Assembly: GCA_964559555.1 (NCBI GenBank)
Contig: CAZLHM010000006.1
Location: forward strand, 9,008 to 73,007
Origin: an uncultured Candidatus Bathyarchaeia archaeon
Lineage (GTDB): Archaea > Thermoproteota > Bathyarchaeia > 40CM-2-53-6
Reading direction: 5' to 3'
Length of the DNA: 64,000 nucleotides
Shown here: piece after piece, positions 3,231 to 36,157 of the stretch
Position numbering within the stretch: position 1 is the stretch's first letter
How the letters are laid out: each line of letters begins with the position of its first letter
Program-made: the position numbers and the translations under genes
The notes under the pieces: model-generated
The model's input: the letters and a program-made list of their open reading frames with translations, nothing else
The model's database searches: none
What the model was told of the DNA's origin: nothing

Positions 3231-3258
3231 CTCGTCGTTGATTGTGTGTGCGAAGGGG

Positions 3259-11864: not shown

Positions 11865-11872
11865 ATGAGTGC

Positions 11873-14511: not shown

Positions 14512-14598
14512 AACCCACGGCTCCGTCAACCGACCGGTATTCCAGCCGACATGATATGACCCTTACTGATACAGTCGAAATCAGGAGGAAAGATTTTA

Positions 14599-18188: not shown

Positions 18189-18197
18189 TTATATAAA
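18189..18197 (+). promoter_or_regulatory. Archaeal TATA box (TTATATAAA) with an upstream BRE-like purine-rich element, for the thermosome gene
   Basis: This is a consensus-like TATA element 48 nt upstream of the thermosome start. The predicted TSS is near 18220. Confidence 0.55.
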
Positions 18198-18244
18198 GAC
18201 GAATTTTCCGTTTCGGTGCTCTTTGAAAACCGAGGTCATGATGT

Positions 18245-19888: not shown

Positions 19889-20144
19889 GCGCCAAGAGAC
19901 CACACTGATCGGCCCTAGGAAGCTTACTCGCTTCGAGAAGGCGAGGGTCGTTGGCGCCCGCGCCCTTCAGATCGCTCTTGGAGCGCCTGTGCTAATTGAG
20001 ATTGACCCCGGAAGCCTTTCTCCGATAGACATTGCCACAGAAGAGCTTGAGGCCCGCGCACTTCCAATCAGCATCAGAAGGACTCTTCCGGACGGGACGA
20101 GCCAGAACATACCGTTGAAGGCGATACTGGCACAAGAAGGCTAG
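19863..20144 (+). CDS. rpoK: DNA-directed RNA polymerase subunit K (Rpo6)
   Basis: [26 protein letters not shown] is the RpoK/Rpb6 signature. The only canonical starts (GTG 19863 or 19866) overlap the thermosome 3' end. Confidence 0.75.
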
Positions 20145-23274: not shown

Positions 23275-24111
23275 GTGGAGGTCACTGCCACCCGTCTCTC
23301 TGGCTTACATTCAGCTTCGATAGACGAACTAGTCGCGGCGCAACAGCGCGCGCAGAACCCTAGGATGCCGATCGCGAATCCATACATAGCTATGCTTCGA
23401 GAAACGGGGCAGACATCTTTCTGCAACATCGCTCATCTTGCAACGAGCAATGGCGTCTGTCGATCTTCATTTGAAGAAGTCGTGTTTAACCTCAAGGAGG
23501 CAGGGATCGTCACTGTCATCAACGAAGAGGTCCACGTCATTCCCGGACAACGACTGAGAATCGCGGAACTAGCAATCCAGAATGGTGCTGATCCCGAGAG
23601 GATTGCCAGGGAACTTCGATGGCAGGAATTCGAGGCGTTCGCAAGTCAGATTCTTGCCAAATACGAATACAAGACCGCACGCCGACTCGTATTCAGCGAT
23701 TCAGGTCATCGTTTTGAGATCGATGTCCTAGGTGCCAAGGAGCCGATCTTGCTCTGTATTGACTGTAAGCACTGGCATCACGGTTGGGCTCCAAGCAAGA
23801 TCACGATGGCAGCCATGAACCAACTACTGCGCGCTTTCCATCTCTCCAAAGTCCTGAAAAAGTACGCGGGGAAGGTTCACACCTTGGGCTGGCGATCTGT
23901 GCAGCTTCTTCCTGCTCTGCTGACATTGGCGGACGTGTCTTCCAGCAGAATCAATGGTGTCCCGATTGTTTCCGTGCTTCGCTTCAGGGATTTTGTGTCC
24001 GAAGTGAATCCCTGGGTCGACGAGCTCCGCTTCATCGAAGCTCGAGTACGCGATGGAACTCCCGAGCTGTCAGGGCTCCCTGCTACTTCTTCGATTCCAG
24101 CTCTTCTCTAA
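23275..24111 (+). CDS. wHTH plus Mrr-like (PD-(D/E)xK) restriction-endonuclease-domain protein
   Basis: The C-terminal half, WQEFEAFASQIL...SDSGHRFEIDVLG...LLCIDCKHW, matches the Mrr_cat pattern (E..F, D..ID, QCK). Confidence 0.5.
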   Translation: MEVTATRLSGLHSASIDELVAAQQRAQNPRMPIANPYIAMLRETGQTSFCNIAHLATSNGVCRSSFEEVVFNLKEAGIVTVINEEVHVIPGQRLRIAELAIQNGADPERIARELRWQEFEAFASQILAKYEYKTARRLVFSDSGHRFEIDVLGAKEPILLCIDCKHWHHGWAPSKITMAAMNQLLRAFHLSKVLKKYAGKVHTLGWRSVQLLPALLTLADVSSSRINGVPIVSVLRFRDFVSEVNPWVDELRFIEARVRDGTPELSGLPATSSIPALL

Positions 24112-25744
24112 GGGTCCGTCTGAGGATCTTCCCTACTAGTGTCTTGGGTAGCGAGCTTCGGAATTCGACTGATGTCGGTGCCTTATAGGTGGCAATCTTC
24201 TCCTTGCAGAACTCGATGATCTCTTTCTCTGTCACTTTTCCCTCGTATCCCTGCTTGAGAGTCACGTAGGCCTTCACGGTTTCACCTCTGTAGGGATCTG
24301 GGACACCCAATACTGCTGCCTCATTTACGGCCGGGTGCTCGTATAGGATTTCCTCGACTTCTCGGGGCCAGACTTTCAGACCCGAAACATCGATCATATC
24401 CTTCTTCCGGTCAACGATGTAGAAGTAGCCGTCTTCGTCCATCTTGGCGATGTCGCCTGTATAGAGCCATTTGTTCCTCAATGCTATGTCGGTTTCATCC
24501 GGCTTGTTCCAGTAGCCCTGCATTACCTGTGGGCCTTTGATCACCAGCTCGCCTGTCTCACCGGATTTGAGGTCCCTCGTCCCAGTCTCAAGATCGACGA
24601 CCTTGGCGTCGGTGTCAGGAACGGGAATGCCAATAGAGCCGGGCCGGTTTTTCTTGGGGTCGTCGAGAGGATTAGCGTGTGAGACGGGACTAGACTCGGT
24701 GAGGCCGTATCCCTCCACCAAGCGACCTCCTGTTATTTGCTCGAATTTCCTCTGGATCTCGACTGGCAATGGTGCAGCACCGGAAATGCATGCGCGAAGC
24801 GAACTGAGATCATACTTGCCTATGTCTGGTCTATTGATGAGGGCAACGTACAGGGTAGGGACACCGCAGAAGACCGTGGCCTTGTATTTGCTGATCCCCT
24901 TCAGTATTGCCTTCTGGTCACGCGGGTCGGGTAGCATGAGCATGGTGGTGCCCGTGAAAACGTGAGTATTCATGGCCGTCGTCATGCCAAAGATGTGAAA
25001 TAGAGGCAACGCGGTCACACCGATGTCGATCCCTCGTCGCACTGGCAATAGAACCTCACATTGAGCGGCGTTCACAATCAGATTTCTGTGAGTAATCATC
25101 GCACCCTTTGGCACTCCCGTTGTCCCACCCGTATACTGAAGAAGAGCCAAGTCGTCTGGTGCCACGGCAACTGGCTTCGGACTCGGTTCATATCTGCTCA
25201 TGAGCGATAGAAAGTCAATGGCTCCGGGGCACTTGTGTGACTTCACGCCTTTCAATGGTGCCAAGAGCCTCAGTAGTGGAGGAAGGTAGTCGCGTGGGCT
25301 GACAGCAATAACGTTCCGCAGTTTCGTCTTCGCTTTGATCTCTTGAACTATCGAGTAGAGAGTATCCATGACAACTAGAGTCTCAGCCTTGGCATCGTTC
25401 AGTTGATGTTCGAGTTCTCTCCCCTTGTACAGTGGACTGCAGGCAACGCATACGGCCCCCGCGCGGAGGGCTCCATAATAGGCGATGGCAAATTGCGGGA
25501 TATTCGGAAGCATAATTCCGACTCTATCGCTCTTCTTTACCCCTAGATCTTGCAATGCCGTGGCGAAAGTGTCAACTAGTCGGTCGAGCTCACGGTACGA
25601 GAATCGTCGCCCATAATAGATGATCGCAGGATTGTCGGGATAGTTCTTAGCAGCCTGTTTCATTACTTCGCCCAGTGAGATGTTAGGGTACTCTATCGAC
25701 TTTGGAACTCCCTCAGGCCAGAACTTGTACCATGGTTTTTCCAA
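24083..25744 (-). CDS. fadD: Long-chain fatty acid--CoA ligase (AMP-dependent synthetase)
   Basis: The AMP-binding motif LQYTGGTTGVPKGAMITHRN, YGLTESSP and the GWxxTGD motif WLYTGDIAKMDEDGY are present. Confidence 0.85.
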   Translation of the reverse strand: MEKPWYKFWPEGVPKSIEYPNISLGEVMKQAAKNYPDNPAIIYYGRRFSYRELDRLVDTFATALQDLGVKKSDRVGIMLPNIPQFAIAYYGALRAGAVCVACSPLYKGRELEHQLNDAKAETLVVMDTLYSIVQEIKAKTKLRNVIAVSPRDYLPPLLRLLAPLKGVKSHKCPGAIDFLSLMSRYEPSPKPVAVAPDDLALLQYTGGTTGVPKGAMITHRNLIVNAAQCEVLLPVRRGIDIGVTALPLFHIFGMTTAMNTHVFTGTTMLMLPDPRDQKAILKGISKYKATVFCGVPTLYVALINRPDIGKYDLSSLRACISGAAPLPVEIQRKFEQITGGRLVEGYGLTESSPVSHANPLDDPKKNRPGSIGIPVPDTDAKVVDLETGTRDLKSGETGELVIKGPQVMQGYWNKPDETDIALRNKWLYTGDIAKMDEDGYFYIVDRKKDMIDVSGLKVWPREVEEILYEHPAVNEAAVLGVPDPYRGETVKAYVTLKQGYEGKVTEKEIIEFCKEKIATYKAPTSVEFRSSLPKTLVGKILRRTLREELESKK

Positions 25745-25777
25745 ACAAGAAGCACCATACCTGCCTCATAGTCGAGT

Positions 25778-25786
25778 CTATAAAAC
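25778..25786 (-). promoter_or_regulatory. TATA-like box (minus strand TTTTATAG) upstream of fadD
   Basis: It is centred about 38 nt upstream of the fadD ATG. Confidence 0.4.
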
Positions 25787-25949
25787 ACTAACTGAGATCA
25801 CCAAGGCGGATACTCTCGGGATATGTGCCGCCGATGTCCGGGTTCCTGCAGTCTGAACGGCTCGGTGGCGTATGTCCCGATGTGGAGTAGGATCTAGTAT
25901 CGATTCTCTGGAACGTGCATGCGGCTCGAAATACGGTTGCGATTGTTAA

Positions 25950-25997
25950 ATGAACAAAAAGAGGGCAGGGGAGTTCTGAGTCTGGTGAGGTTGCCCT
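25950..25997 (-). terminator. Hairpin (AGGGCA/UGCCCU) followed by an oligo-U tract downstream of the acyl-CoA dehydrogenase gene
   Basis: The 6-bp stem (25962-25967 with 25992-25997) is followed on the transcript by CUUUUUGUUCAUUU, a typical archaeal oligo-T termination signal. Confidence 0.4.
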
Positions 25998-25998
25998 G

Positions 25999-27210
25999 TC
26001 ACTTGCCGGCTTCTTCCCACTTCCTCCAAGCCGCGAACTCTGAGCCTAGAAGCTGGAGGGCGATTACGATCTTCTGAGCGTTTCTTGTTCCTTCTGCAAC
26101 CACGGCCTGTCTCGTGGTTCTGTACGCCTGTTGCACATCGTAGTCTGTTGTCGTTCCCATACCGCCGAACCATTCGACGACATCGCTAATTGCCTTCATG
26201 CAGCTCTCGGAGGCGACAAGCTTTGCGCAGGAGGCGGCCATCATTGCATCATAGAACGATGCCCGTCCGTCGTGGTATCTGTCGATTAGCCACGCGGCGC
26301 GGTAGCACAACCATCGTGCTGCTAAGACGTTAGCATAGTTTTCGGCAAGCTCGAACTGGATTCCTTCAAAACCGGCGATAGGTCGCCCAAATGCTCGGCG
26401 CTGTTTGATGTGTTCCATGCCAAGCTCGAGACACTTTTCAGCACCCGCAACAATTGCCATCGTGGTTGGGACTCGGGCGTGAACGAATGACTCATACGTC
26501 AGCTGATATCCCGTCCCTTCGAACCCGATGAGACAGTGTTCGGAGACCTTGGTGTTATCGTATCTGACTCCACCCAGGTCTATGCCCATTCCCTCGAAAA
26601 CTGATGTGGTGATGCCGTTCGACGTCACCGGGATGAAGAGCAAGCTCATTCCCTTTGATCCGAGTTCGGGTTTGGTCTTCACAGAAGTGATGAAGCCACC
26701 ACCATACTTCATCGCTTCAGGAACGCAACTCAGTATCTGCTTCTCTCCACTGATCACGTACTCTCCGTTGGTCTTCTTGGCTGTTGTCGCTATTGCTGTG
26801 AAGTCGGTGCCGCATCCGGGCTCGGTATTGTGAAGGGGAGTTATCCAGCCGTCCTTCACGACCTTTGGGAGAATCTCTTCTTTCAACTCCGCCGTTCCAT
26901 ACGCCGCAATTATGCGTGCACAGGTAGCCCCGTACCAGACCGGAATTCCCGCTACACCTGTCGGGTCAGCTTTCGTGAGTTCCTCTACCGCGATTGCGAA
27001 AGTCACGTAATCTGACTCGCTTCCGCCAAACTCCTTCGGGAGAAGCAGACCAAATAGGCCCTGACTTGTCAGAGCCTTGTGAACATCAGCTGTAATCATC
27101 CGTTCCTTTGCTATCTCTTTTGCTTTCGGCGTAAGCACTTTCGCGTAGTAATCCTTGAGCGTGCGTCTAAAGAGCTCTTGTTCTTCTGTGAAGTTGAAGT
27201 CTATGGGCAT
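25999..27210 (-). CDS. Acyl-CoA dehydrogenase
   Basis: The 403 aa product has the ACAD N, middle and C domains, including a FAD-binding region with the conserved W (GGMGTTTDYDVQQAYR), and a catalytic Glu region near the C-terminus. Confidence 0.85.
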   Translation of the reverse strand: MPIDFNFTEEQELFRRTLKDYYAKVLTPKAKEIAKERMITADVHKALTSQGLFGLLLPKEFGGSESDYVTFAIAVEELTKADPTGVAGIPVWYGATCARIIAAYGTAELKEEILPKVVKDGWITPLHNTEPGCGTDFTAIATTAKKTNGEYVISGEKQILSCVPEAMKYGGGFITSVKTKPELGSKGMSLLFIPVTSNGITTSVFEGMGIDLGGVRYDNTKVSEHCLIGFEGTGYQLTYESFVHARVPTTMAIVAGAEKCLELGMEHIKQRRAFGRPIAGFEGIQFELAENYANVLAARWLCYRAAWLIDRYHDGRASFYDAMMAASCAKLVASESCMKAISDVVEWFGGMGTTTDYDVQQAYRTTRQAVVAEGTRNAQKIVIALQLLGSEFAAWRKWEEAGK

Positions 27211-27216
27211 CGCGTT

Positions 27217-28044
27217 TCACTTCCCTTTGAACTCTGGTTTTCGTTTCGACATGAACGCAGAAACACCTTCCATCACGTCCTTTGTCGAAAGCACGATACC
27301 AAACGCCTCAGATTCGAACTTGAGTCCCACATCAAGTGGCACTTGAGTTGCATAGTTCAGTGCGTGTTTCGCCGCTTTCAGCGCTATCGGTGGTCCCTCG
27401 ACGAACTGCTTAGCGAATGCCTTTGTTTCTTCTACGAGTTTGTCTCTCGGAACAACTCTGTTGACTAGACCAATCCTGTGAGCTTCTTCTGCAGTGATTC
27501 GATCACCCAGCATTATCAACTCCTTTGCCTTCGCCAAGCCCACTATGCGTGTTAGTCTCTGCGTTCCACCCCAACCCGGCATGAGGCCAAGCCTGATTTC
27601 TGTCGCGCCAACTTGGGCGCTTTCTGATGCGATTCTGAAGTCGCAGGCGAGAGAGAGTTCGAGGCCGCCTCCTAGTGCGTAACCGTTGATGCAGGCGATT
27701 ACGGGTTTCCCTAGCGCTTCGATTCGTGCAGTAAGCTCGTGTCCCTTCATCGACGCATCAGTGGCTGTAGATGGAGTTATGCCGGTGAATGAGGTGACAT
27801 CTGCTCCGGCGCTGAATGCTTTCTCGCCGGCTCCTGTGATTACAACACATTTCACTTCTTTGTCCGACTCGAAGTCAGAGAGCGCAGAGGTGAACTCGTT
27901 CATCATGTCAAGGGTCATCGTGTTGAGTCTGTGCGGACGATTCAGGGTGATCCAGCCAATTCCCTCTTCTTTCTTAACGATAATGTCCTGGTAGGTCTTT
28001 CCTTCACTCAATCCTGAGAACCTCTGGTGAATGAGGAGTCGCAC
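27217..28044 (-). CDS. Enoyl-CoA hydratase (crotonase family)
   Basis: The oxyanion-hole motifs VITGAGEKAFSAGAD and ACINGYALGGGLELSLACD are present. Confidence 0.85.
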   Translation of the reverse strand: MRLLIHQRFSGLSEGKTYQDIIVKKEEGIGWITLNRPHRLNTMTLDMMNEFTSALSDFESDKEVKCVVITGAGEKAFSAGADVTSFTGITPSTATDASMKGHELTARIEALGKPVIACINGYALGGGLELSLACDFRIASESAQVGATEIRLGLMPGWGGTQRLTRIVGLAKAKELIMLGDRITAEEAHRIGLVNRVVPRDKLVEETKAFAKQFVEGPPIALKAAKHALNYATQVPLDVGLKFESEAFGIVLSTKDVMEGVSAFMSKRKPEFKGK

Positions 28045-28115
28045 TACCGACTATAAGAAACTCTCTACACGCTCGCTGACTCACATTATGTTCGACTGCT
28101 GCGCGTGTCGTTGCG

Positions 28116-29312
28116 TTATCTGTACTTGTGAAATCCCTGACCTGCCTTCTTGCCCAACCGTCCGTTCTTCACGTACTCGGGGAGGAGCGGGCACGATTCG
28201 TACATTGGCTCTGAGTATCTGCCGTGCAGATCACAGAGGTTCTTGACTATCGTGTCGATTCCAATCTTGTCTGCCAGCTCACACGGTCCTGAAGGCCATC
28301 CTGTGCCAAACTTCATAGCGGTGTCTATGTCAGCTGGCGTAGCAACATCGTCGTGAACAAGCCATGCAGCTGCATTGGCGGCCATAGTATAGAGCCTATT
28401 CGGGTCGAACTTGTCTGCGAGTTCGAATGGTATCCGCGGTCGCCCGGCGCTCCAGTTGTAGAACCCCTCTCCTGTCTTCTGGCCGAGCTTTCCGGCTTTG
28501 ACTAGAGGCTGGTAGATCGTGCTGGGCTTGGCTCGGGCGCCAAAAGCCTCCTCCATCTCTCTGGCGACGCTGTTAAGTATGTCTAGACCGACGAAGTCAG
28601 CAAGCTCGAATATGCCCATTGGAAATCCCGCTTGGTACTTCATCGCAGCGTCAACCTCTTCCTTCGTCGTCTCATTGCGTTCAACGGCCCAAAATGCTTC
28701 GTTGAACACCGAGGCGAGAATTCCGTTGACGATGAACCCTCGGACATCCTTCTTCACGAGGACAGCCGTCTTTCCGAGTTTCTTCGCGAGATCCAATGCA
28801 AACTTGGTCGTCTCTTCGCTTGTTTGCGCTCCTCTGATGATTTCCAGCAAAGGCATCATTTGTGGAGGATTGAAGAAGTGTAGTCCCACGACCTTGTCGG
28901 GTCTATTGGTCATCTTTCCGAGCTCGCTGATGCTAAGCGTTGACGTGTTAGAACCGAGGATGGCATGTTTGGGTGCCAGCTTGTCCATCTGGGCAAAGAG
29001 CTTCTTCTTCATCTCAAGGTTCTCAGGAGCTGCCTCAACGATAAGATCCGCATCCTTGAACGCTTCATCCATGCTCGTTGTGACGCGTAGACGGGCCATT
29101 GCCGCTTCGGCATCTTCCTTCCGGATAGTCCTCTTCTCTGCAAACTTCTCCAAACTCCACTGAATCTTCTCGCGTGCTTTCGCTAGAATCTCGTCGCTGA
29201 TGTCAACCATCGTGACCTCCGTGCCTGTCATGATCAGCAGTTGTGCTATTCCGTGACCCATTGATCCCGACCCCAAGACGGCAGCTTTCTTCAACGATTG
29301 TACGCTCATCAC
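28116..29312 (-). CDS. 3-hydroxyacyl-CoA dehydrogenase
   Basis: It has an N-terminal Rossmann fold (AVLGSGSMGHGIAQ) and duplicated C-terminal 3HCDH domains. Confidence 0.85.
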   Translation of the reverse strand: MMSVQSLKKAAVLGSGSMGHGIAQLLIMTGTEVTMVDISDEILAKAREKIQWSLEKFAEKRTIRKEDAEAAMARLRVTTSMDEAFKDADLIVEAAPENLEMKKKLFAQMDKLAPKHAILGSNTSTLSISELGKMTNRPDKVVGLHFFNPPQMMPLLEIIRGAQTSEETTKFALDLAKKLGKTAVLVKKDVRGFIVNGILASVFNEAFWAVERNETTKEEVDAAMKYQAGFPMGIFELADFVGLDILNSVAREMEEAFGARAKPSTIYQPLVKAGKLGQKTGEGFYNWSAGRPRIPFELADKFDPNRLYTMAANAAAWLVHDDVATPADIDTAMKFGTGWPSGPCELADKIGIDTIVKNLCDLHGRYSEPMYESCPLLPEYVKNGRLGKKAGQGFHKYR

Positions 29313-29355
29313 ACTCTCTCCAGCTACCGTTGCCAGCCTTCTAGTATTTCAGAGA

Positions 29356-29793
29356 TTAGATCGGCACGAGCTCGTAGCTAGAACCTTCCGGGGAAGGCTT
29401 TCCAACAAGCTTGACTTTCATGCCGACTTTGGCTTGACCGAGTTTCACACCTGTGAGCCAAGCAAGTACTCTTACCCCTTTGTCTAGCTTCGCCACGGCG
29501 ACTGTGTATGTCTCATGCTCAGCAAAGCTCGTAGGTCTAACGATGACATGCGTGAACGTCTCGATCTGTCCCTTATCGCCGGTCAGGTCGATCCAGTCCA
29601 TGTCCGAACCAAGGCATTTGGAGCAATCGACCACCGGCGGGAAGTACTTCTGCCCACATTTCTTGCACACTGTACCGTAGACTTTGCCGTTCTCCAGTTC
29701 GTCCCAGAATCTCGCGGTTTTGTTTGTTGGGATGTCAAATGTGAGGGTCATCGGCTTCGATTTGAGTGCACGTGTTGGAGGACCAAATGCCAT
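29356..29793 (-). CDS. DUF35 Zn-ribbon/OB-fold protein (thiolase-associated)
   Basis: A CKKCGQKYFPPVVDCSKC rubredoxin-like ribbon is followed by an OB fold. It is gene-coupled to the thiolase, with 2 nt between them. Confidence 0.75.
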   Translation of the reverse strand: MAFGPPTRALKSKPMTLTFDIPTNKTARFWDELENGKVYGTVCKKCGQKYFPPVVDCSKCLGSDMDWIDLTGDKGQIETFTHVIVRPTSFAEHETYTVAVAKLDKGVRVLAWLTGVKLGQAKVGMKVKLVGKPSPEGSSYELVPI

Positions 29794-29794
29794 G

Positions 29795-30958
29795 CTAATC
29801 CCTCCCCAGTATCATTACGTAGCAGTAATGCCCGGTGCCACCAACATTGTGAGCAAGCGCGTTACCCTGCTTGACGGGAACCTGCCTCTTCCCCGCTTCT
29901 CCGCGCAGTTGGCGTGTGAGCTCAGTCATCATGGAAACCCCAGTCGCGCCAATTGGATGTCCCTTGGCCTTGAGACCGCCATCCACATTGACGGGTATTC
30001 TCCCTCCGATCTCCGTTTGGCCTTCACGAATCATCTTGCCGGCAGCCCCTCGCTCGCAGAATCCCAGATCCTCATACGCCAGAAGCTCAGCAATCGTGAA
30101 GCAATCGTGAACGGTCGCGACATCAATTCTGCTTGCGTCTACCTTTGCGGAGGAATATGCCCGCTCGGCGGCCAGCGTCGCGGAATGCAGAGACGAGAAG
30201 TCCTCTCTCTTGCTGATGTTCGCCGTGCCAGAGGACACGCCTAGCCCCTTGATCCAGATCGGTGTATCTGACAGATCCTTTGCCCTGTTCTCAGATGCCA
30301 AGACTATTGCTGCAGCCCCGTCGCTGACTGGACAGCAATCGAAGATCTTCAACGGCCAGGCAATTACTCGAGATGAGAGTACATCTTCGACCTTGATGGG
30401 TCTCTGGAAATGCGCGTAAGGATTCATAGAAGCATACTTGTGGCTCTTCACAGCGACCTTTGCGAGGTCCTCTTCCGTTGTGCCATGCTTCTTCATGTGG
30501 GCAGTTGCGTGAAGTGCATAGTAGGCTGGAAATGTCATGCCGAAGTTGTGAAACTCCCAGAGATAGTAGCCAGCCCTTCCGATCAGTTCGATTGAGGTCA
30601 GGATGTCCACCTCGGTCATCTTCTCGACGCCCACGGCCATCGCAACGTCAGTGTGACCGCTCGCAACAGCTTGATACGCAGCCACCACAGCAGCGCTCCC
30701 AGACGCGCATGCAGCTTCGCACCTGATGAGCCCTGCTCCAGTGAGACCGGAATATTCGGAAATCACAACTGCCGGAAGGAACTCCTCGTACCACCCTCCT
30801 GCGGTCCCGACGCTGACTAAGCCGATGTCATTCTGTCCGATGCCGGCGTCTTGGATCGCTGGTTTGATCGCTTCGAATGCCAACTCCGCGAGGTTTGCGT
30901 CACGACGATCACCGAAGACTGAATGCCCTATGCCTACAACGGCAACTCTTCGAGACAA
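29795..30958 (-). CDS. Thiolase (acetyl-CoA C-acyltransferase, archaeal SCPx-type)
   Basis: The 387 aa product has a thiolase fold with an active-site Cys region (CEAACASGSAAV) and a C-terminal His/Cys region. Confidence 0.85.
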   Translation of the reverse strand: MSRRVAVVGIGHSVFGDRRDANLAELAFEAIKPAIQDAGIGQNDIGLVSVGTAGGWYEEFLPAVVISEYSGLTGAGLIRCEAACASGSAAVVAAYQAVASGHTDVAMAVGVEKMTEVDILTSIELIGRAGYYLWEFHNFGMTFPAYYALHATAHMKKHGTTEEDLAKVAVKSHKYASMNPYAHFQRPIKVEDVLSSRVIAWPLKIFDCCPVSDGAAAIVLASENRAKDLSDTPIWIKGLGVSSGTANISKREDFSSLHSATLAAERAYSSAKVDASRIDVATVHDCFTIAELLAYEDLGFCERGAAGKMIREGQTEIGGRIPVNVDGGLKAKGHPIGATGVSMMTELTRQLRGEAGKRQVPVKQGNALAHNVGGTGHYCYVMILGRD

Positions 30959-31044
30959 GAACCCAACTCCTGAGATGAATTCTGAATTAGTGGGCGAAGC
31001 TAGTTCTCGGCGAGCTTAAAGCTCTTGTCACAATAGAAAATGAG

Positions 31045-31557
31045 TTGGATCAATCGTCCAATCGTGAACGTTACAGGGCTTTCTCCGTGTGTCCTGATGG
31101 TAGACCTTTTCTATCTCCTTCGAGGGAGTCGTTCCCGTCGCTGGTAGTATGCTTGGTGAAGTTTCCTTCTGAGGAATGGATAGAGCTGTTCATGGAGGCG
31201 GTCAACGCGAACAGCAACTATGAGGAAGCCGCGAAGACTTGGGAGGGCGACTTTCTCTTCGTAATCGAACCCGACACAGAGCTGAAAGATCCCGCTACTT
31301 TCTATGTGGACTTGTGGCATGGTAAATGTCGAGGCGTTGATCTCCTCAAACCAGGTGAGGAGAGAACTACAGCCTTCGTCTACTCAGGACCCTACGCGAA
31401 CTGGAAGAAGCTGATCAACAAGCAGATCGATCCGATTCAAGGCCTCTTGACTGGCAAGTTCAAGCTGAAGGGCGACATGGTCAAGGTTCTGCGGGCGGTG
31501 AGGGCGGCAAAAGAACTCGTCGAGACTGCCGGAAAGGTCCCGACAGAGTTCGCGTGA
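31045..31557 (+). CDS. SCP2 (sterol carrier protein 2)-domain protein
   Basis: The LTGKFKLKGDMVKVLRAV motif is present. The probable start is TTG/GTG at 31153/31156, giving (M)VKFPSEEWIELF... Confidence 0.65.
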   Translation: MDQSSNRERYRAFSVCPDGRPFLSPSRESFPSLVVCLVKFPSEEWIELFMEAVNANSNYEEAAKTWEGDFLFVIEPDTELKDPATFYVDLWHGKCRGVDLLKPGEERTTAFVYSGPYANWKKLINKQIDPIQGLLTGKFKLKGDMVKVLRAVRAAKELVETAGKVPTEFA

Positions 31558-31585
31558 ACTACAGGATTGGCGAGTCAGACCTCCA

Positions 31586-32752
31586 ATGTGGTATTTTACC
31601 AGTCCTGAGATAGCCTTCGGAGAAGACGCTCTTGAGCATCTGAGAACCATCGAAGGAACGCGCATCCTCATCGTAACAGATCCAATCGTTTCCAACCTTG
31701 GGATTCTGGAGCCTGTGCTGAACGAGCTGAAGAGGGAAGCACGACAGATAGAGATCTTCAGCCAAGTTGAGCAGGAGCCTTCTTTTGAGAACGTTGGAAA
31801 GGTGGCGAAGGCTGCGCACCACTTTCAGCCAGACTTGTTCGTCGCGGTAGGGGGAGGTTCGTGCATAGACGCGGCGAAGGCTGGATGGATTCTCTACGAA
31901 CGACCCGATTTGAAGCTCGAGGCAGTTAGTCCTCTAACCAAGCTCGATCTCCGAAAGAAGGCAAGATTCGTTGCCATTCCTACAACGGCGGGAACAGGTT
32001 CGGACGCGACTTGGGTTGCGGTGCTCACGGACAAGGCTCAGGATTTCAAAGTCGACTATATCGCTTCCAGAGAACTCACCCCTGATTTCTCAATATTAGA
32101 CCCGCGGCTCTTGCTCAAGCTTCCTAGAGAGACGACCGCGCAGACCGGGCTCGATGCACTGACGCAGGGGATCGAAGCCTATGTGAGTCAGTGGCGAAAC
32201 GATTTCTCCGACGGTCTCGCGTTGAGGTCAATTCAAATCCTGTTTGAGTATCTTCCGAAAGCATATGACAACCCGGATGATCTCTTGGCGAGACAAAAGA
32301 CGCAGAACGCTGCGACAATTTCGGGGCTCGCTTTCGGGAACGCTCAGCTCGGTCTGGCACACGCAATGGGGCATGCGTTAGGCGCAACCTTCCACATGAG
32401 TCATGGACTGTCCGTTGCACTTTCGAATCTGTATGTTATTCCATTCTCGCGTCGTGACGCGGCAGGAAGGTACGCTGACATCGCTTGTGCCATCGGGATT
32501 GAGGAACCCTCAGCCGACAAGGCCACTGACCGACTCGTGCAAGCGACCAAGCGCCTCATGACTTATCTGAAGACGCCCCTGTCCTTGCGCGATGCAGGCA
32601 TTTCTCACAGCGATCTTGAGCAGAACATTGACGACCTGGTGGAAAAGACGAACAGATCAACGTGCACATTCGTCAACCCGAGGGTACCGGATGTGCGAGA
32701 GATCCGTAGACTCTTCGTTTGCATGCATGAAGCGAAAGATGTTGACTTCTAG
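31586..32752 (+). CDS. Iron-containing alcohol dehydrogenase
   Basis: The Fe-ADH motifs GGGSCIDAAKA, the His cluster AHAMGHALGATFHMSHG, and NAD-binding GSD are present. Confidence 0.85.
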   Translation: MWYFTSPEIAFGEDALEHLRTIEGTRILIVTDPIVSNLGILEPVLNELKREARQIEIFSQVEQEPSFENVGKVAKAAHHFQPDLFVAVGGGSCIDAAKAGWILYERPDLKLEAVSPLTKLDLRKKARFVAIPTTAGTGSDATWVAVLTDKAQDFKVDYIASRELTPDFSILDPRLLLKLPRETTAQTGLDALTQGIEAYVSQWRNDFSDGLALRSIQILFEYLPKAYDNPDDLLARQKTQNAATISGLAFGNAQLGLAHAMGHALGATFHMSHGLSVALSNLYVIPFSRRDAAGRYADIACAIGIEEPSADKATDRLVQATKRLMTYLKTPLSLRDAGISHSDLEQNIDDLVEKTNRSTCTFVNPRVPDVREIRRLFVCMHEAKDVDF

Positions 32753-32758
32753 ACGACG

Positions 32759-34618
32759 GTGGCACGATTGATCGGCGGATACACGGGAAGGACTCTATTC
32801 GTCGATCTTAATCACGGAAGTATCACCGAGAAGCCTACGAATGAGGAATTCGCTCGCACCTACATTGGTGGAAGCGGCTACGCCTGTAGGCTTGCTCTAG
32901 ATTACTTGGAGCGGAGGACTGACCCGCTCGGCTCTGATAACGTGTTGATCTTCGCGGCAGGCCCCTTGGCGGGCACATCTGCGCCGAGTTCTGGGCGCCA
33001 TGCCGTATGTGGGAGGTCGCCGCAGACGGGATTGTGGGGTGAATCCTACGCGGGCGGTGTCTTCGGCGCAAAGATGAAGTTTGCTGGGTTCGATGTCCTG
33101 GTTGTGACCGGGAGAGCGACAGATCCAACCTACATCTCCGTGAGAGATGGCAACGCGGAACTCAGGCCAGCCAGACACTTGGTCGGTGAGGACACGTCGG
33201 CGACTCAGAAACTCATCAAGGAGGAACTCCGTGACCAATCAGCAAGCATCTCATGCATCGGTAAGGCCGGAGAGAACCTAGTCAAGTATGCCACAGTGAT
33301 GAACGATTGGAACCGCGCTGCCGGTCGAACCGGCATGGGCGCCGTGATGGGAAGCAAGAATCTGAAAGCCATCGCAGTCTCCGGGAACCACAAGGTTTCT
33401 GTGGCAAACCCTGACGAGTTCACGAAGGCCTGCAGCAGTGCATTGAAGTTCCTGAGAGAATCAAGCGGCACAGAAGCTTTTCGCGTGGCCGGAACAGCAT
33501 GTGGCGCGACGTACTTCAATGAGATCGGGAATATGCCGAACAAGTACTTCTCCAGAGGGACATTCGAAGACTCGTACAAGATCGACGGCGTCTCAATGAA
33601 GCAATCAATCCTCTCGGGGACAAGTACCTGCTATGGCTGCGTGATCCGATGCGGACGAGTAGTGACTATCAACGAAGGTAAGTACGCGATAGGCAAGACC
33701 GACGGACCAGAATACGAGACTCTGTGCGGTTTCGGACCGAATCTATCCTGCACGTCTCTCGAAGCTATCGCGTTCGTGAATGAACTCTGTAACCGTTATG
33801 GAATGGACACCATCAGCTGCTCGGTAACTATCGGGTTTGCCTACCACCTCTACGAGAAGGGCATACTGACGAAGCATGACACCGGTGGTTTCGAATTGAA
33901 GTGGGGTGAGATCGACCCGGCGATCGAGTTGGTGAAGATGATAGCGGAGAGAAGAGGCATCGGCGGCCTTCTCGCAGAGGGAACACGCGAGATGGGTAAG
34001 AAGTATGGGGTCGAAGAGCAAGCCATGAACGTGAAAGGCCTTGAGCTACCGTTCCATGATCCAAGGGCCATCAGTGGGATGGCGGCATCCTACGCCACCT
34101 CGCCCAGAGGTGCCTGCCACAACTACTCCACGATCTACTTGGTTGAGATCGGGCAGATCGTTCCAGAGCTCGGCATCTTCTCCATGGACAGACTGTCCAA
34201 CGACGGAAAGGCCGAACTTGCCTTCAACAGCGAGAACTACCGGGCCGTCTATAATGCGATGTTGATGTGTCAATTCGCCAACCCGCCGGTACAGGACGTG
34301 GCAGACATGCTTTCGCACTGTACTGGCCTTGAAGTCACTCCACAAGAACTGCTCAAGATAGGTGAGAGGATCATCATGGCGAAACGCGTCATGAATCTGC
34401 GTCTAGGCGCGACTGCGCAAGACGATCGCTTGCCAAAACACATACTGCAACCACTGCCCGATGGTCCAGCGGCAGGCAACGTTCCTGATCTGGGTCGCCA
34501 GTTGAAGGAGTACTATGCAATCAGAGGATGGGATCAAGATACCGGCGATCCCGTCGTGGAAAAGCTTCACTCGCTCGGTCTTGACTCGTTGTCCGCGTAT
34601 TTACCATCTAGAAGCTGA
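32759..34618 (+). CDS. Aldehyde:ferredoxin oxidoreductase (tungstopterin AOR family)
   Basis: The 619 aa product has the AOR N-terminal domain (YTGRTLFVDLNHGSITE) and the CxxCxxxC..C [4Fe-4S] and pterin-binding regions (TCYGCVIRCGR). Confidence 0.85.
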   Translation: MARLIGGYTGRTLFVDLNHGSITEKPTNEEFARTYIGGSGYACRLALDYLERRTDPLGSDNVLIFAAGPLAGTSAPSSGRHAVCGRSPQTGLWGESYAGGVFGAKMKFAGFDVLVVTGRATDPTYISVRDGNAELRPARHLVGEDTSATQKLIKEELRDQSASISCIGKAGENLVKYATVMNDWNRAAGRTGMGAVMGSKNLKAIAVSGNHKVSVANPDEFTKACSSALKFLRESSGTEAFRVAGTACGATYFNEIGNMPNKYFSRGTFEDSYKIDGVSMKQSILSGTSTCYGCVIRCGRVVTINEGKYAIGKTDGPEYETLCGFGPNLSCTSLEAIAFVNELCNRYGMDTISCSVTIGFAYHLYEKGILTKHDTGGFELKWGEIDPAIELVKMIAERRGIGGLLAEGTREMGKKYGVEEQAMNVKGLELPFHDPRAISGMAASYATSPRGACHNYSTIYLVEIGQIVPELGIFSMDRLSNDGKAELAFNSENYRAVYNAMLMCQFANPPVQDVADMLSHCTGLEVTPQELLKIGERIIMAKRVMNLRLGATAQDDRLPKHILQPLPDGPAAGNVPDLGRQLKEYYAIRGWDQDTGDPVVEKLHSLGLDSLSAYLPSRS

Positions 34619-35429
34619 TCTTCATCGCCTGAACGATCCTTGGAAGCGTCTCTCCCGCGAGCGCGTAGAGTTTGTAGTCACACAGATGATCCCACTCGGC
34701 TCTCTCAGTGTTGATTGAAATGATCTTAGCTCCGTTCCTCTTCACGATCTCTGGAAACGAGGCTGCCGGTTCGACTTCGAGTGATGTTCCAACGGCGAGG
34801 AGCAAGTCTGCGGATCTCACTTCTTTGATCGCCTCGTCTAGCACCTTCTTCGGAACCGCCTCTCCAAACAAGATCACATCAGGCTTGAGTGGACTTCCAC
34901 ATCTGCTGCATCTTGGTATGTCCTGCCGTATTAGGCAATTCATGATTTCCTCAGTTGCATATGTGCTGCCGCAATTCGCACAACTGACACGTTCTATGGT
35001 GCCGTGAATCTCGATGACGCGTCTGCTTCCAGCGCGTTGGTGAAGCCCATCTATGTTCTGAGTAATAACACACTCAAGTCGTTTCATCTCTTCCAGCTCT
35101 GCCAAGGCAATGTGAGCCGGGTTCGGCTTCGCTCTAAGGAATGACCAACCAATGTCTCTCGCGAACTCCCAGAACTTCTGTGGATCTTGCATGAACGAGC
35201 CAATGGAAGCGACTACGGCCGGATCGTACCTGCTCCACAGCCCACTCTTGCCGCGGAACGTTCCGAGCCCGCTCTCTGCTGAAATCCCCGCGCCTGTTAG
35301 GGCTACCGCTCTTCTTGCATGCTTGATCTCATGGGCGATTGACATTATGGCGGAGTAGGCTTCCAATATGCGCCGAGCCATGAGAGGAAGTGCCGCAATA
35401 TATTTGGTTGATCTGCAGTATGGTGCCAT
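34608..35429 (-). CDS. NAD-dependent protein deacetylase (Sir2 family)
   Basis: GAGISAESGLGTFRG, the Zn ribbon CANCG...CSRCG and the catalytic HG are present. Confidence 0.8.
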   Translation of the reverse strand: MAPYCRSTKYIAALPLMARRILEAYSAIMSIAHEIKHARRAVALTGAGISAESGLGTFRGKSGLWSRYDPAVVASIGSFMQDPQKFWEFARDIGWSFLRAKPNPAHIALAELEEMKRLECVITQNIDGLHQRAGSRRVIEIHGTIERVSCANCGSTYATEEIMNCLIRQDIPRCSRCGSPLKPDVILFGEAVPKKVLDEAIKEVRSADLLLAVGTSLEVEPAASFPEIVKRNGAKIISINTERAEWDHLCDYKLYALAGETLPRIVQAMKISF

Positions 35430-35479: not shown

Positions 35480-36157
35480 TTGAAGGATGAGGTTATCCAG
35501 AGACAACTCGCGGATGCAATAGTGAGAGGGGAGTCGGGGTTGGCCGAGGCGAAGGCCAAGGTCATTGCGCAGTATGCAAAGGATCCGACTGAGGCACTCG
35601 ATGATCTGTACGACGCGTTCAGGGCCGCCGAGAGTCTCCACATGATGGGCGAGTATGATGAGAATCGTTTTGATGCCTCGGCGCATGCGGCTCAGGCTTC
35701 ACTGAACGCTCTCAAGTCATCATTAATACCAAGGCAGACCCGTTTCAAAGCAAGGATCTGTATTGGGCCGGTTTCTGGTGGGAGAGATGTCATCAGTACA
35801 ATAGTCGCGGCGATGCTCACAGCGACGGGTCATGAAGTGACTGATCTGTCAAGAGCGACAACTTCCAAGGAATTGTTGAGGAACGCCGAGCAGAGCAACG
35901 TGGAGCTCCTTATCGTGAGCTTCAACGAGCAAACTGTGTCACTTGCAGAGGAGTTCATCAGCGAATTCGAGTCTGGCGGGTTCCAGAGCAAGTTCCAAGT
36001 GATGGCGTTCGCCAGAGGGTCTCCTCCAAACATCCCAGTGTCCGACCGCTTCGCTCTTGTCGTCCATGAGCCGCTCGAACTGCTGAGCAAGGTTACCGAG
36101 TTCCTGATCCGAAAGCAACGTTCCGTTCAAAAGGATGAGGATGACTCAACAGACTGA
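35480..36157 (+). CDS. Corrinoid-protein-like (B12-binding cap plus B12-binding Rossmann domain) lacking the DxHxxG histidine
   Basis: An N-terminal helical cap is followed by ICIGPVSGGRDVISTIVAAMLTATGHEV. The D is retained, but the His is replaced. Confidence 0.45.
   Translation: MKDEVIQRQLADAIVRGESGLAEAKAKVIAQYAKDPTEALDDLYDAFRAAESLHMMGEYDENRFDASAHAAQASLNALKSSLIPRQTRFKARICIGPVSGGRDVISTIVAAMLTATGHEVTDLSRATTSKELLRNAEQSNVELLIVSFNEQTVSLAEEFISEFESGGFQSKFQVMAFARGSPPNIPVSDRFALVVHEPLELLSKVTEFLIRKQRSVQKDEDDSTD

Follow-up and report, generated by a model that had tools for sequence, protein, structure and literature searches.

A nine-gene region of an uncultured Bathyarchaeia MAG was found to comprise two separable, putatively catabolic units, which together would lead anaerobically from hydrophobic alcohols or aldehydes to acetyl-CoA; we assign this reading a probability of roughly 0.55. 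One unit runs thiolase–DUF35–HCDH–ECH–ACAD and then ACS, and the divergent one runs SCP2–FeADH–AOR. The entity that is conserved is the scp2-adh-aor trio, an autonomous and widespread unit. The window (the whole stretch of DNA analysed, 64 kb) carries the following features:

24083..25744, minus strand: ACS, FadD-like AMP-forming acyl-CoA synthetase, 553 aa (Pfam AMP-binding, 4e-105, and AMP-binding_C)
25745..25998, minus strand: ACAD–ACS gap, 254 bp, with a T-rich run following the ACAD stop and a TATA-like box
25999..27210, minus strand: ACAD, acyl-CoA dehydrogenase, 403 aa (all three ACAD Pfam domains)
27217..28011, minus strand: ECH, crotonase-type enoyl-CoA hydratase, 264 aa (Pfam ECH_1, 1e-73)
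28116..29312, minus strand: HCDH, 3-hydroxyacyl-CoA dehydrogenase, 398 aa (Pfam 3HCDH_N, 8e-67)
29356..29793, minus strand: DUF35, ChsH2-like zinc ribbon and OB fold, 145 aa (zf-ChsH2, 1.5e-9; OB_ChsH2_C, 2e-14)
29795..30958, minus strand: thiolase, archaeal/SCP2-type, 387 aa (Pfam Thiolase_N and Thiolase_C_1)
30959..31152, no strand: divergent intergenic region, two separately conserved blocks in six aligned orthologous regions
31153..31557, plus strand: stand-alone SCP2-fold protein, 134 aa (Pfam SCP2, 6e-10)
31586..32752, plus strand: Fe-ADH, iron-type (group III), 388 aa (Pfam Fe-ADH, 2e-42; ADH_Fe_C, 5e-43)
32768..34618, plus strand: AOR, aldehyde:ferredoxin oxidoreductase sensu stricto, 616 aa (Pfam AFOR_N, 1e-75; AFOR_C, 2e-125)
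34608..35429, minus strand: Sir2/CobB-type NAD-dependent protein deacylase (Pfam SIR2, 2e-53)

All nine genes of the original prediction were recovered in place; their family matches are strong and the catalytic motifs intact. Starts were corrected with the aid of public gene calls for this same contig and of homologue alignments: SCP2 most likely starts at 31153 (vs. ORF 31045–31557, plus strand), ECH (minus strand) ends at 28011 according to the public gene call (vs. ORF 27217–28044), and AOR starts at 32768 (vs. ORF 32759–34618, plus strand). The archaeal host proposed earlier was confirmed by a thermosome and an archaeal PolB encoded in the window and by the relatives: the genome relatives of AOR are Bathyarchaeia MAGs (4/4), and among the homologues of ACAD, which are plentiful at 66–93% identity, one that is 87% identical is labelled Bathyarchaeia. 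The layout is not due to chance: at least five independent contigs share the nine-gene order (L003, L004, L006, L009, L014).

The thiolase, first gene of the β-oxidation operon, scored 573 bits with NCBIfam PRK12578 (cut-off 485) and retains C84, the HDCF motif (284–287), and H334. The DUF35 gene is separated from the thiolase stop by 1 nt, and its product, with two CxxC pairs, is the thiolase partner. HCDH is not fused to ECH and has a duplicated C-terminal domain (two 3HCDH C-terminal stretches in Pfam). In Rossmann folds, an Asp following GxGxxG denotes NAD rather than NADP; Asp37, read by eye, occupies this position in HCDH, which therefore should use NAD. The catalytic Glu pair of ECH (E118 and E138, 20 residues apart in the 264 aa numbering) is kept, as is the catalytic E373 of ACAD within an AEGT motif. 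The thiolase/DUF35 pair has partners of the degradation type: crotonase ECH, NAD-type HCDH, ACAD, and AMP-forming ACS. According to Schmerling et al., these enzyme classes make up the β-oxidation set of Sulfolobus acidocaldarius, the ACAD/ETF of which is unable to work reductively. That organism uses a stand-alone thiolase for β-oxidation and its KT/DUF35 pair as a condensation-favouring, synthetic thiolase. The synthetic role of the S. acidocaldarius pair counts against the proposed route.

The tight gene packing described originally holds overall, with the exception of the 254 bp gap between ACAD and ACS. A TATA-like box, GTTTTATA, lies in this gap at 25785–25779 (about 35–41 nt upstream of the ACS start) and is invariant among five aligned orthologous gaps, the remainder of which is variable. 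It is a putative ACS promoter element, and ACS is probably its own transcription unit. ACS retains the A10 lysine (K539 in PKTLVGK); its top NCBIfam matches are long-chain-fatty-acid–CoA ligases, with PRK06187 at 463 bits (cut-off 476).

The SCP2 gene is the first of the trio. Its AlphaFold2 model (pLDDT 95.7) was matched by Foldseek to Thermus thermophilus SCP2 (2cx7, TM 0.82–0.85), followed by the yeast, rabbit, and Archaeoglobus fulgidus proteins; the gene product is, as modelled, a genuine SCP2 fold, and lipid binding is its candidate role. Identity is 62–87% across Bathyarchaeia and Thermoplasmata, with WEGDF, DLWHGKCR, and GKFKLKG invariant. The Fe-ADH is nearest to the ADH domain of AdhE (top PDB entry 3zdr, 2e-87). 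Its metal ligands D190, H259, and H273 are kept, and Gln194 replaces the DxxxH histidine; the lack of this canonical ligand counts against the route. The tungsten-type identity of AOR was borne out: the protein groups with Pyrococcus furiosus AOR (top PDB entry 1aor, 1.5e-126, 40.3% identity) and not with FOR, GAPOR, or BamB, and it keeps the C-x2-C-x3-C...C cluster ligands and the equivalents of Glu313 and His448.

Conservation of the trio was counted only for those AOR relatives whose upstream DNA spans 1.9 kb or more. The trio is present in 13/13 relatives at ≥48% AOR identity and in 6/19 at 43–48%, and is still seen down to about 41%; variants with only ADH or only SCP2 beside AOR exist, and trio-linked AORs group together in a crude NJ tree. 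No description of a three-gene SCP2–ADH–AOR operon was found in the searchable literature. SCP2 follows alcohol/aldehyde oxidation chemistry and not an enzyme family: an orthologous SCP2 (67% identical) accompanies a Zn-ADH and an NAD-ALDH in the Thermoplasmata locus L097, and an SCP2–FeADH fusion protein of 717 aa exists. A third link of SCP2 to this chemistry is a Promethearchaeota (Asgard) MAG with the order ACAD/two thiolases/two DUF35, SCP2, ADH, AOR, flavodoxin.

Beyond the divergent adjacency in the window's own lineage and this Asgard locus, a second Bathyarchaeia lineage carries trio and acyl-CoA genes on one contig (same strand, 12–15 kb apart), and a FadD-like ACS directly follows AOR in five distant loci. 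The association of the trio with the β-oxidation unit is repeated and non-obligatory. The single module originally envisaged did not hold: acyl-CoA genes are missing from the vicinity of most trio loci, which counts against the joint route, and the β-oxidation operon is conserved independently and also occurs without the trio alongside.

In the proposed route, the SCP2-fold protein would bind and present an alcohol or aldehyde of poor solubility, the Fe-type ADH would oxidise the alcohol with NAD(P)+, and the tungstopterin AOR would convert the aldehyde irreversibly into the acid, pulling the unfavourable ADH step and delivering electrons to ferredoxin or flavodoxin. The FadD-like AMP-forming synthetase, under a putative promoter of its own, would activate the acid from AOR, and unit A (thl-duf35-hcdh-ech-acad) would shorten the acyl-CoA in a CoA-dependent β-oxidation cycle, its archaeal SCP2-type thiolase being held by the DUF35 protein. 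We infer the oxidative direction, the chain length, and the redox partners of this route. The idea as such is known, and novelty is moderate, because a route through AOR, ADH, FadD, and β-oxidation has already been proposed, independently, in alkane-oxidising archaea for alcohols and alkane-derived intermediates; the novelty lies in the carrier-assisted trio.

The earlier pathway interpretation as a whole is partly supported. Enzyme classes for each step from alcohol through aldehyde, acid, and acyl-CoA to acetyl-CoA are encoded with intact catalytic residues. A "complete route" was an overstatement: no ETF, ETF-oxidising enzyme or complex, or ferredoxin was found in the 64 kb window, which counts against the route, and the gene tables of the relatives' loci likewise list no ETF family. 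The electrons from ACAD thus have no evident acceptor in what is presumed to be a fermentative or acetogenic anaerobe, and ETF and ferredoxin would necessarily be encoded elsewhere in the genome. The claim of long-chain substrates likewise went too far: ECH, HCDH, ACAD, and ADH best match short-chain or AdhE-type families, all below curated cut-offs (the top match of ECH, a short-chain enoyl-CoA hydratase, reaches 295 bits vs. 394), and the sole pointers to hydrophobic substrates are the FadD-like ACS and SCP2.

These best matches are of clostridial types that often work reductively, which counts against oxidation and favours the same genes being run reductively as a fermentative electron sink, a reading that we consider unlikely. 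Thiolase/DUF35 would condense acetyl-CoA, HCDH, ECH, and a Bcd-like ACAD served by an unlinked bifurcating Etf would form butyryl- or longer acyl-CoA, and AOR with reduced ferredoxin, followed by ADH, would turn free acids into alcohols, in the manner of the AOR–ADH routes of acetogens or of engineered Pyrococcus. AOR is reversible in principle, and a respiratory acceptor is not evident within the window. The top matches comprise a short-chain crotonase, 3-hydroxybutyryl-CoA dehydrogenase, acryloyl/butyryl-CoA dehydrogenase (closest PDB relatives of ACAD: 5lnx, 9w60, 4l1f), and the AdhE ADH domain. In S. acidocaldarius, the KT/DUF35 thiolase outperforms the stand-alone enzyme 60-fold in condensation, and ADH plus AOR of Bathyarchaeota has been annotated in print as acetate-to-ethanol, which also counts against oxidation. 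However, the only enzyme of the cluster linking acids and CoA esters is a synthetase of the AMP-forming kind, which acts in the direction of acyl-CoA and would waste ATP in a fermentation; AOR–ACS adjacency recurs in distant loci; orthologous operons carry two additional ACAD paralogues, typical of degradation; an SCP2 carrier makes little sense with water-soluble C2–C4 products; and SCP2 stands with an oxidative-direction NAD-ALDH in L097.

It is similarly doubtful that the operons are functionally independent and adjacent in this lineage by an accident of rearrangement, with the trio detoxifying or oxidising aldehydes and alcohols from other sources (for example, amino-acid or 2-oxoacid fermentation or products of TPP enzymes) and the β-oxidation operon serving fatty or branched acids that are imported. 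In most lineages the trio is found by itself, without an enriched neighbour family (at most three occurrences among 75 flanking ORFs), and in sister lineages its neighbours are an ALS-like TPP enzyme, a 2-hydroxyacid dehydrogenase, a family III CoA-transferase, and an ADP-forming ACD. Conserved adjacency in loci with the window's layout reflects relatedness, because synteny extends well past the cluster (M50 peptidase, Sir2, phosphoglycerate mutase). The divergent region holds two separate blocks, CTTAAAG..CTCTTGTCA on the thiolase side (about 31015–31030) and GATAGACCTTTTCTATC on the SCP2 side (about 31099–31116), both putative promoters; the DNA between them varies in length (about 190–420 bp among six orthologues), and no shared operator was evident in the six-orthologue alignment. 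Against independence, the thiolase/DUF35/ACAD/ACS association occurs in at least three non-syntenic arrangements, one of them in another phylum, and the carboxylic acid produced by the trio is the exact substrate of the adjoining ACS.

A biosynthetic thiolase/DUF35 operon, the finding named originally as one that would refute the route, is very improbable and largely refuted by gene content: such pairs scaffold both known complexes (mevalonate thiolase/HMGCS and archaeal fatty-acid synthase), and among solved structures the thiolase most resembles the mevalonate thiolase of Methanothermococcus thermolithotrophicus (6esq, 4e-80; 7yvy is the other closest relative), but neither this pair nor its counterpart in any orthologous locus is flanked by an HMG-CoA synthase, the mevalonate-type NCBIfam equivalog reaches 384 bits (cut-off 600), and the cluster has an (S)-type crotonase, NAD-type HCDH, and ACAD in place of an SDR ketoacyl-CoA reductase, MaoC dehydratase, or MDR enoyl-CoA reductase.

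MobB and MoeA (2675–4506), proposed originally as suppliers of the AOR cofactor, are real genes; they lie 28 kb from the cluster and the link is weak. The tungstopterin of P. furiosus AOR is a non-nucleotide form, so that a need for MobB is not obvious. The Sir2/CobB-type deacylase (NCBIfam PRK00481.1-3, 300 bits, cut-off 243) is convergent with AOR (11 nt overlap) and might possibly regulate ACS; it adjoins AOR only in closely related syntenic loci and not in L005, L011, or L013.

All nine genes named in the original prediction were confirmed with the list of open reading frames (ORFs) and a Pfam scan. The starts of the SCP2, ECH and AOR genes were revised with the aid of homologue alignment and of the gene calls published for the same sequence, an ENA metagenome contig of about 75.6 kb; the public AOR start lies 9 nt downstream of the first GTG, and an exact look-up with the GTG-start version returned no match, while that with ADH succeeded. 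The genes, with the basis of each call in brackets, are:

24083-25744, minus strand, AMP-forming acyl-CoA synthetase, ACS (ORF list and Pfam)
25999-27210, minus strand, acyl-CoA dehydrogenase, ACAD (ORF list and Pfam)
27217-28044, start revised to 28011, minus strand, crotonase-type enoyl-CoA hydratase, ECH (Pfam; public gene call)
28116-29312, minus strand, 3-hydroxyacyl-CoA dehydrogenase with duplicated C-terminal domain, HCDH (ORF list and Pfam)
29356-29793, minus strand, DUF35/ChsH2-type zinc-ribbon-OB protein (ORF list and Pfam)
29795-30958, minus strand, thiolase (ORF list and Pfam)
31153-31557, plus strand, SCP2 protein of 134 aa (Pfam; start from public gene calls and homologue alignment)
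31586-32752, plus strand, iron-type alcohol dehydrogenase, ADH (ORF list and Pfam)
32768-34618, plus strand, aldehyde:ferredoxin oxidoreductase, AOR (Pfam; start from public gene call)

The beta-oxidation set of ACAD, crotonase-type hydratase, NAD-type HCDH and thiolase was found to be complete, catalytic residues included (Pfam, NCBIfam and residues read from the sequence). The catalytic glutamate of ACAD is E373 in an AEGT motif, ECH keeps E118 and E138 at a distance of 20 residues, HCDH has GxGxxG followed by D37, and C84, the HDCF motif and H334 are all retained in the thiolase. The DUF35 protein carries two CxxC pairs, and the A10 lysine of ACS is kept. Judged by family membership only, the hydratase/HCDH step would be (S)-stereospecific. 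As to the host, the window carries a thermosome gene and an archaeal family-B polymerase; all four AOR relatives among species-representative genomes (68-81% identity) are from Bathyarchaeia metagenome-assembled genomes (MAGs), and an 87%-identical ACAD bears the Bathyarchaeia label.

The original prediction had joined these genes into one module leading from alcohol through aldehyde and fatty acid to acetyl-CoA. The genes themselves are confirmed and this interpretation is supported in part: the beta-oxidation enzyme classes of that route stand, and no electron-transferring flavoprotein (ETF) that could serve ACAD as acceptor was found in the window. The region comprises more than one operon: ACAD and ACS are separated by 254 bp, and thiolase and SCP2 diverge from a region of 194 bp (approximately 190-420 bp in relatives). 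Alignment of five orthologous ACAD-ACS gaps gave variable sequence except for a T-rich stretch past the ACAD stop and an invariant, TATA-like GTTTTATA block located approximately 35-41 nt upstream of the ACS start. Because this block is invariant within an otherwise variable gap, ACS probably has an archaeal promoter of its own. The aligned divergent regions contain two separately conserved blocks, one by each start codon, with a variable middle, which suggests two promoters; they gave no sign of an operator shared between thiolase and SCP2. A scan for sigma-70 promoters and intrinsic terminators, with a model that is not applicable to archaea, gave fewer matches than shuffled sequence.

Conservation was assessed at 97 related loci besides the window's own contig (4 species-representative genomes, 13 exact homologue look-ups and 80 metagenome contigs anchored on the AOR alignment), onto which ten window proteins, i.e., those of the nine cluster genes and Sir2, were mapped by tblastn; L numbers denote such loci. 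The full layout, with the beta-oxidation genes divergent from the SCP2-ADH-AOR trio, was present in L003, L004, L006/L007, L009 and L014, and in part in L008 and L010. The full-layout loci are syntenic past the cluster (M50 peptidase, Sir2, phosphoglycerate mutase), so conservation of the layout is largely a matter of relatedness. The trio was also found without the window's beta-oxidation genes in L005, L015 and L011/L012 (AOR 60-75% identical), where a family III CoA-transferase, a different ACAD, an ALS-like TPP enzyme, a 2-hydroxyacid dehydrogenase and an ADP-forming acyl-CoA synthetase lie upstream of it, and amid unrelated genes in L013 (AOR 53%).

Trio counts took in only loci whose sequence extends 1.9 kb or more upstream of AOR. 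With AOR identities of at least 48%, the trio was present at all 13 loci (ADH only, SCP2 only and neither, 0 each). At 43-48% identity (19 loci), 6 had the trio, 5 ADH only, 4 SCP2 only and 4 neither; below 43% (22 loci), the corresponding numbers were 3, 0, 1 and 18. In a crude neighbour-joining tree without support values, rooted with the AOR of Pyrococcus furiosus, the AORs linked to SCP2/ADH grouped together and unlinked ones were mostly basal. When the 75 ORFs around 14 non-syntenic trio loci were searched for enriched neighbours, no family occurred more than 3 times and no hidden fourth component emerged. Persistence of the trio without the beta-oxidation genes, together with this lack of a recurrent neighbour family, argues that it is an autonomous, widely distributed operon.

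Certain neighbours of the trio deserve separate mention. The ACAD upstream of it in L005 (122-8160), L011 (815-8212) and L015 resembles cyclohexanecarboxyl-CoA dehydrogenase, and a fragment of a TPP enzyme is kept between thiolase and SCP2 in L008 (2100-3212). For the TPP enzymes by the trio in L011 and L008, candidates for 2-hydroxyacyl-CoA lyase, 2-oxoacid decarboxylase or acetolactate synthase, every NCBIfam match was below cut-off. It is speculation that an aldehyde-forming lyase or decarboxylase of this kind links the trio to an alpha-oxidation or Ehrlich-type pathway.

The AOR carries AFOR_N (Pfam, 1.4e-75) and AFOR_C (2.4e-125) domains, both full-length, and shares this two-domain architecture with P. 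furiosus AOR (PDB 1aor), to which it aligns over its full length (1.5e-126, 40.3% identity). Residues C288, C291, C295 and C494 of the P. furiosus enzyme, which bind the [4Fe-4S] cluster, and its active-site residues E313 and H448 all have identical counterparts in the phmmer alignment to 1aor, and are invariant or nearly so in 34 homologues. Bit scores against PDB entries were 426 for 1aor, 286 for FOR, 233 for WOR5 and 196 for BamB, and the GAPOR equivalog scored 28.8 against a cut-off of 1300; by these scores the enzyme is nearer to AOR sensu stricto than to FOR, GAPOR, WOR5 or BamB. A bis-pterin cofactor with tungsten, or else molybdenum, and ferredoxin as acceptor are predicted. The window AOR differs from that of P. 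furiosus in its membership of a subclade co-operonic with SCP2 and iron-type ADH; no SCP2 protein or iron-type ADH is known to be encoded alongside the P. furiosus gene.

Both domains of group III iron-type ADHs were found in the window ADH (N-terminal, Pfam 1.8e-42; C-terminal, 5.1e-43), which matched PDB 3zdr at 1.9e-87. The canonical Asp-His-His-His metal site is incomplete: D190, H259 and H273 are kept, and the histidine of the DxxxH motif is Gln194. Gln and His alternate at this position among relatives at 70-75% identity; in more distant trio ADHs it is His in almost all, with Gln in one (L051). As the two residues alternate among close relatives, Gln194 appears to be tolerated, and activity is probably retained.

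The SCP2 assignment (Pfam 5.6e-10) was examined with an AlphaFold2 model (pLDDT 95.7), for which each of the top approximately 40 Foldseek matches was an SCP2 protein or domain (best TM 0.82-0.85): Thermus thermophilus SCP2, followed by yeast, Archaeoglobus fulgidus AF1534, rabbit SCP2, UbiJ and the alkyl-binding domains of alkylsulfatases. From its fold the protein would bind a hydrophobic ligand such as a lipid, in an internal tunnel. The stand-alone T. thermophilus protein (PDB 2cx7/1wfr) is the closest solved structure and of equal size (TM 0.82-0.85, 30% identity), whereas the archaeal subfamily has an invariant polar motif of its own, DLWHGKCR. The Thermus protein stems from structural genomics and is not known to have an assigned pathway.

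SCP2 is the most conserved trio member (in L011, 84% identity for SCP2, 72% for ADH and 60% for AOR). Over Bathyarchaeia and Thermoplasmata its identity is 62-87%, with WEGDF, DLWHGKCR, GPYxNW and GKFKLKG invariant; the invariant polar residues of the subfamily (SCP2 alignment A3) are E31, D33, D53, H56, C59, R60 and K102. Such residues would be unusual in a passive lipid carrier and hint at a site that binds a head group or a metal, or at a surface for contact with another protein. A 67%-identical SCP2 is tightly clustered with a zinc-type ADH and an NAD-type aldehyde dehydrogenase (ALDH) in a Thermoplasmata MAG (L097, one locus only), a non-homologous replacement of iron-type ADH and AOR. 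A profile search over 1.84 billion representatives yielded 1,194 members of the subfamily, among them a 717-aa protein in which SCP2 is fused N-terminally to an iron-type ADH. Because of this fusion and the replacement locus, SCP2 appears tied to alcohol/aldehyde chemistry rather than to one enzyme family. Subfamily members from the same search (P0457, P0502, P0472, P0463) present fusions with a B12-binding radical-SAM enzyme, an R2-like di-iron (ribonucleotide-reductase small chain) domain, a TIR domain and an iron-type ADH.

The order thiolase-DUF35-HCDH-ECH-ACAD is likewise kept independently of the trio. In L094, which shares a contig with L005 (overlap of the two loci verified), it follows an ACS gene and precedes two more ACADs; the set lies 12-15 kb upstream of the trio, in the same orientation. 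The same six genes occur on a 728-kb contig (L096) by two further ACADs, acyl-CoA mutase/MeaB, more thiolase/DUF35 sets and an HdrD-like Fe-S protein; the flanks of the operon there (1-1654 and 11224-20072) comprise the HdrD-like CCG/Fe-S protein, acyl-CoA mutase with MeaB and a B12-binding subunit, and two thiolases grouped with two DUF35 genes. ACAD is not always part of the operon, an orthologue standing alone in L095. In a Promethearchaeota (Asgard) MAG (L098), ACAD and two thiolase-like and two DUF35 genes lie directly upstream of SCP2-ADH-AOR on the same strand, and a FadD-like ACS directly follows AOR in five distant loci. The association of the trio with acyl-CoA genes is thus repeated and non-syntenic (L094/L005, L098, five AOR-ACS loci), and not obligatory. 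Downstream of AOR in L098 (9912-10891) lie a flavodoxin gene and another SCP2.

An oxidative direction of the pathway is favoured, with a probability of roughly 55%, because ACS is AMP-forming, AOR-ACS adjacency recurs, ACAD paralogues are expanded and an NAD-type ALDH takes the place of AOR in L097 (one locus). The presence of SCP2 suggests hydrophobic ligands, and the FadD-like ACS reached 463 bits with the model of a long-chain ligase subfamily, whose cut-off is 476. AOR and ADH are reversible in principle, and ECH, HCDH, ACAD and ADH have their best matches in short-chain or AdhE-type families, all below equivalog cut-offs. These are the families of the clostridial crt-bcd-etfBA-hbd butyrate/butanol genes and of acid reduction by AOR and ADH, from which the window differs in that its operon lacks etfAB, its thiolase is of the archaeal DUF35-dependent kind, and an AMP-forming ACS is found instead of a CoA-transferase or Ptb-Buk. 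In published annotations of Bathyarchaeota, ADH with AOR has been taken for an acetate-to-ethanol route and the beta-oxidation genes for degradative or possibly synthetic. If the reductive reading were true, the trio would serve to make long-chain alcohols and be of biotechnological interest. With regard to redox partners, no ETF-family protein was found among window ORFs of at least 150 aa or in the gene tables of the related loci examined, and an ETF may be encoded elsewhere in the genome. No ETF-oxidising enzyme was found in the 64 kb window, nor a ferredoxin, the CxxCxxCxxxCP motif being absent in all six frames.

A biosynthetic role of the thiolase paired with DUF35 (KT/DUF35), as part of a mevalonate or fatty-acid synthase complex, was rejected on gene content. 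The question had been posed with the original prediction, as membership of the pair in a biosynthetic clade, and the answer went against such membership. No HMG-CoA synthase (HMGCS) was found beside the pair in the window, where its neighbours are HCDH and the divergent SCP2, or in L004, L006, L009, L094 or L096, and SDR, MaoC and MDR genes were absent from the cluster and the orthologous loci. The thiolase passed the generic archaeal thiolase model of NCBIfam (573 against a cut-off of 485) and fell below that of the mevalonate equivalog AcCoTHIOL_METTL (384, cut-off 600). Biosynthetic readings are unlikely because of these results and because the pair is co-operonic with degradative enzyme classes and accompanied by an AMP-forming synthetase. 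The precedent in their favour is Sulfolobus acidocaldarius, in which KT/DUF35 serves as a scaffold for an NADPH-dependent SDR ketoacyl-CoA reductase and a MaoC dehydratase, synthesis being completed with an MDR enoyl-CoA reductase; KT/DUF35 is reversible there, with condensation 60-fold better. Beta-oxidation in that organism employs ACAD/ETF, a fused HCDH-ECH protein of (S) specificity and a thiolase that stands alone (Schmerling et al., bioRxiv 10.1101/2024.07.05.601840). Shared with the window are CoA dependence without ACP, the degradative ACAD, (S)-type hydratase and NAD-type HCDH, and the thiolase-DUF35 pairing. In the window, however, the pair is co-operonic with unfused ECH, HCDH and ACAD, whereas the Sulfolobus pair is synthetic and HCDH-ECH is fused. 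As far as gene arrangement tells, the locus is a mixed arrangement outside the Sulfolobus model and a counter-example to the rule derived from it that KT/DUF35 equals a biosynthetic thiolase, which bears on the debate over fatty-acid metabolism in archaea and in the Asgard relatives of eukaryotes.

The logic of the oxidative route is already known: a path through AOR, ADH, FadD and beta-oxidation has been proposed for archaea that use alkanes or alcohols, e.g., Ca. Cerberiarchaeum oleivorans (PMC10811742), in which alcohol or aldehyde is likewise converted into fatty acid by tungsten AOR, activated by FadD and degraded by beta-oxidation. Bathyarchaeota beta-oxidation genes have also been annotated repeatedly in the literature. 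The Cerberiarchaeum route was drawn from genome-wide inventories and lies downstream of alkyl-CoM reductase, whereas the window, which lacks Acr/Mcr, has its genes in a physical cluster, and a dedicated SCP2 carrier belongs to the operon. What appears new is the occurrence of KT/DUF35 within beta-oxidation and the SCP2-ADH-AOR operon, of which no description was found in the searchable literature on SCP2 in connection with AOR, archaea or Bathyarchaeia.

In anoxic sediments and peat, Bathyarchaeia rank with the most abundant archaea, and their diet is still argued from gene inventories. The linked ADH, AOR, ACS and beta-oxidation genes with a lipid-carrier gene give a testable hypothesis of anaerobic use of fatty or isoprenoid alcohols. 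SCP2, ADH and AOR form a compact three-protein system open to expression and assay, and the trio, carrier-containing and found across phyla, is a tractable lead on the handling of hydrophobic alcohols and aldehydes in anaerobic archaea. A bolder proposal, which we regard as doubtful, is that the trio, with a possible SCP2-ZnADH-ALDH counterpart at the one Thermoplasmata locus, would be a dedicated carrier-assisted machine of anaerobes of the Bathyarchaeia, Thermoplasmata and Asgard groups for uptake and oxidation of insoluble long-chain or isoprenoid alcohols and aldehydes (waxes, phytol, ether lipids). SCP2, instead of being a passive carrier, would then be an obligatory subunit that channels the substrate, a role proposed because of the invariant His-Gly-Lys-Cys-Arg motif. 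If true, archaea would possess in the trio an anaerobic counterpart, coupled to ferredoxin, of the SCP2-assisted lipid oxidation of peroxisomes, and the lipid alcohols of sediments would have a sink so far unrecognised. Like the window, eukaryotic peroxisomal SCPx/SCP2 and the SCP2 domains of MFE-2 associate an SCP2-fold carrier with a thiolase of the SCP2 type (HDCF) and with beta-oxidation of acyl chains of low solubility. The window SCP2 differs as a separate 134-aa protein in an anaerobic, ferredoxin-linked setting, its conserved partners being ADH and AOR (or Zn-ADH and ALDH), not thiolase.

Genes for MobB and MoeA (2675-4506, minus strand), which act in maturation of the molybdopterin/tungstopterin cofactor, had been put forward as a possible supply for AOR. 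The genes are real; they lie 28 kb away, the examined loci show no tie between them and the cluster, and a dedicated supply was on these grounds rejected as evidence. CofE (F420:gamma-glutamyl ligase; 11091-11864, plus strand) is likewise not linked to the cluster. All three are consistent with pterin- and F420-dependent metabolism.

A Sir2/CobB deacylase gene (34608-35429, minus strand) overlaps the 3' end of AOR by 11 nt, an adjacency seen only in closely syntenic relatives, and a GNAT acetyltransferase gene (21477-22061, minus strand) flanks the cluster on the opposite side. In bacteria, the A10 lysine of ACS is acetylated and deacetylated by GNAT/Sir2-type pairs. An ORF of 225 aa (35480-36157, plus strand) is kept by Sir2 in relatives (218-225 aa, no Pfam match on record); its sole match, to a B12-binding domain, stays below threshold (23.7 bits, cut-off 32.1). 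tRNA and Rfam scans of the window gave no match. In the family-B DNA polymerase (7222-11067, plus strand, 1281 aa), weak matches to Hint (aa 592-679) and to LAGLIDADG (aa 926-967) lie between the exonuclease and polymerase domains, so that the protein probably contains an intein that includes a homing endonuclease. Genes for cell-surface glycans form a long island on one strand (41440-63174, plus strand), with several glycosyltransferases of the GT2 and GT4 families, a tandem pair of DUF3131 proteins, a GDP-mannose 4,6-dehydratase, a sulfatase, a phosphodiesterase, a PMT-like protein and large ORFs without family match.
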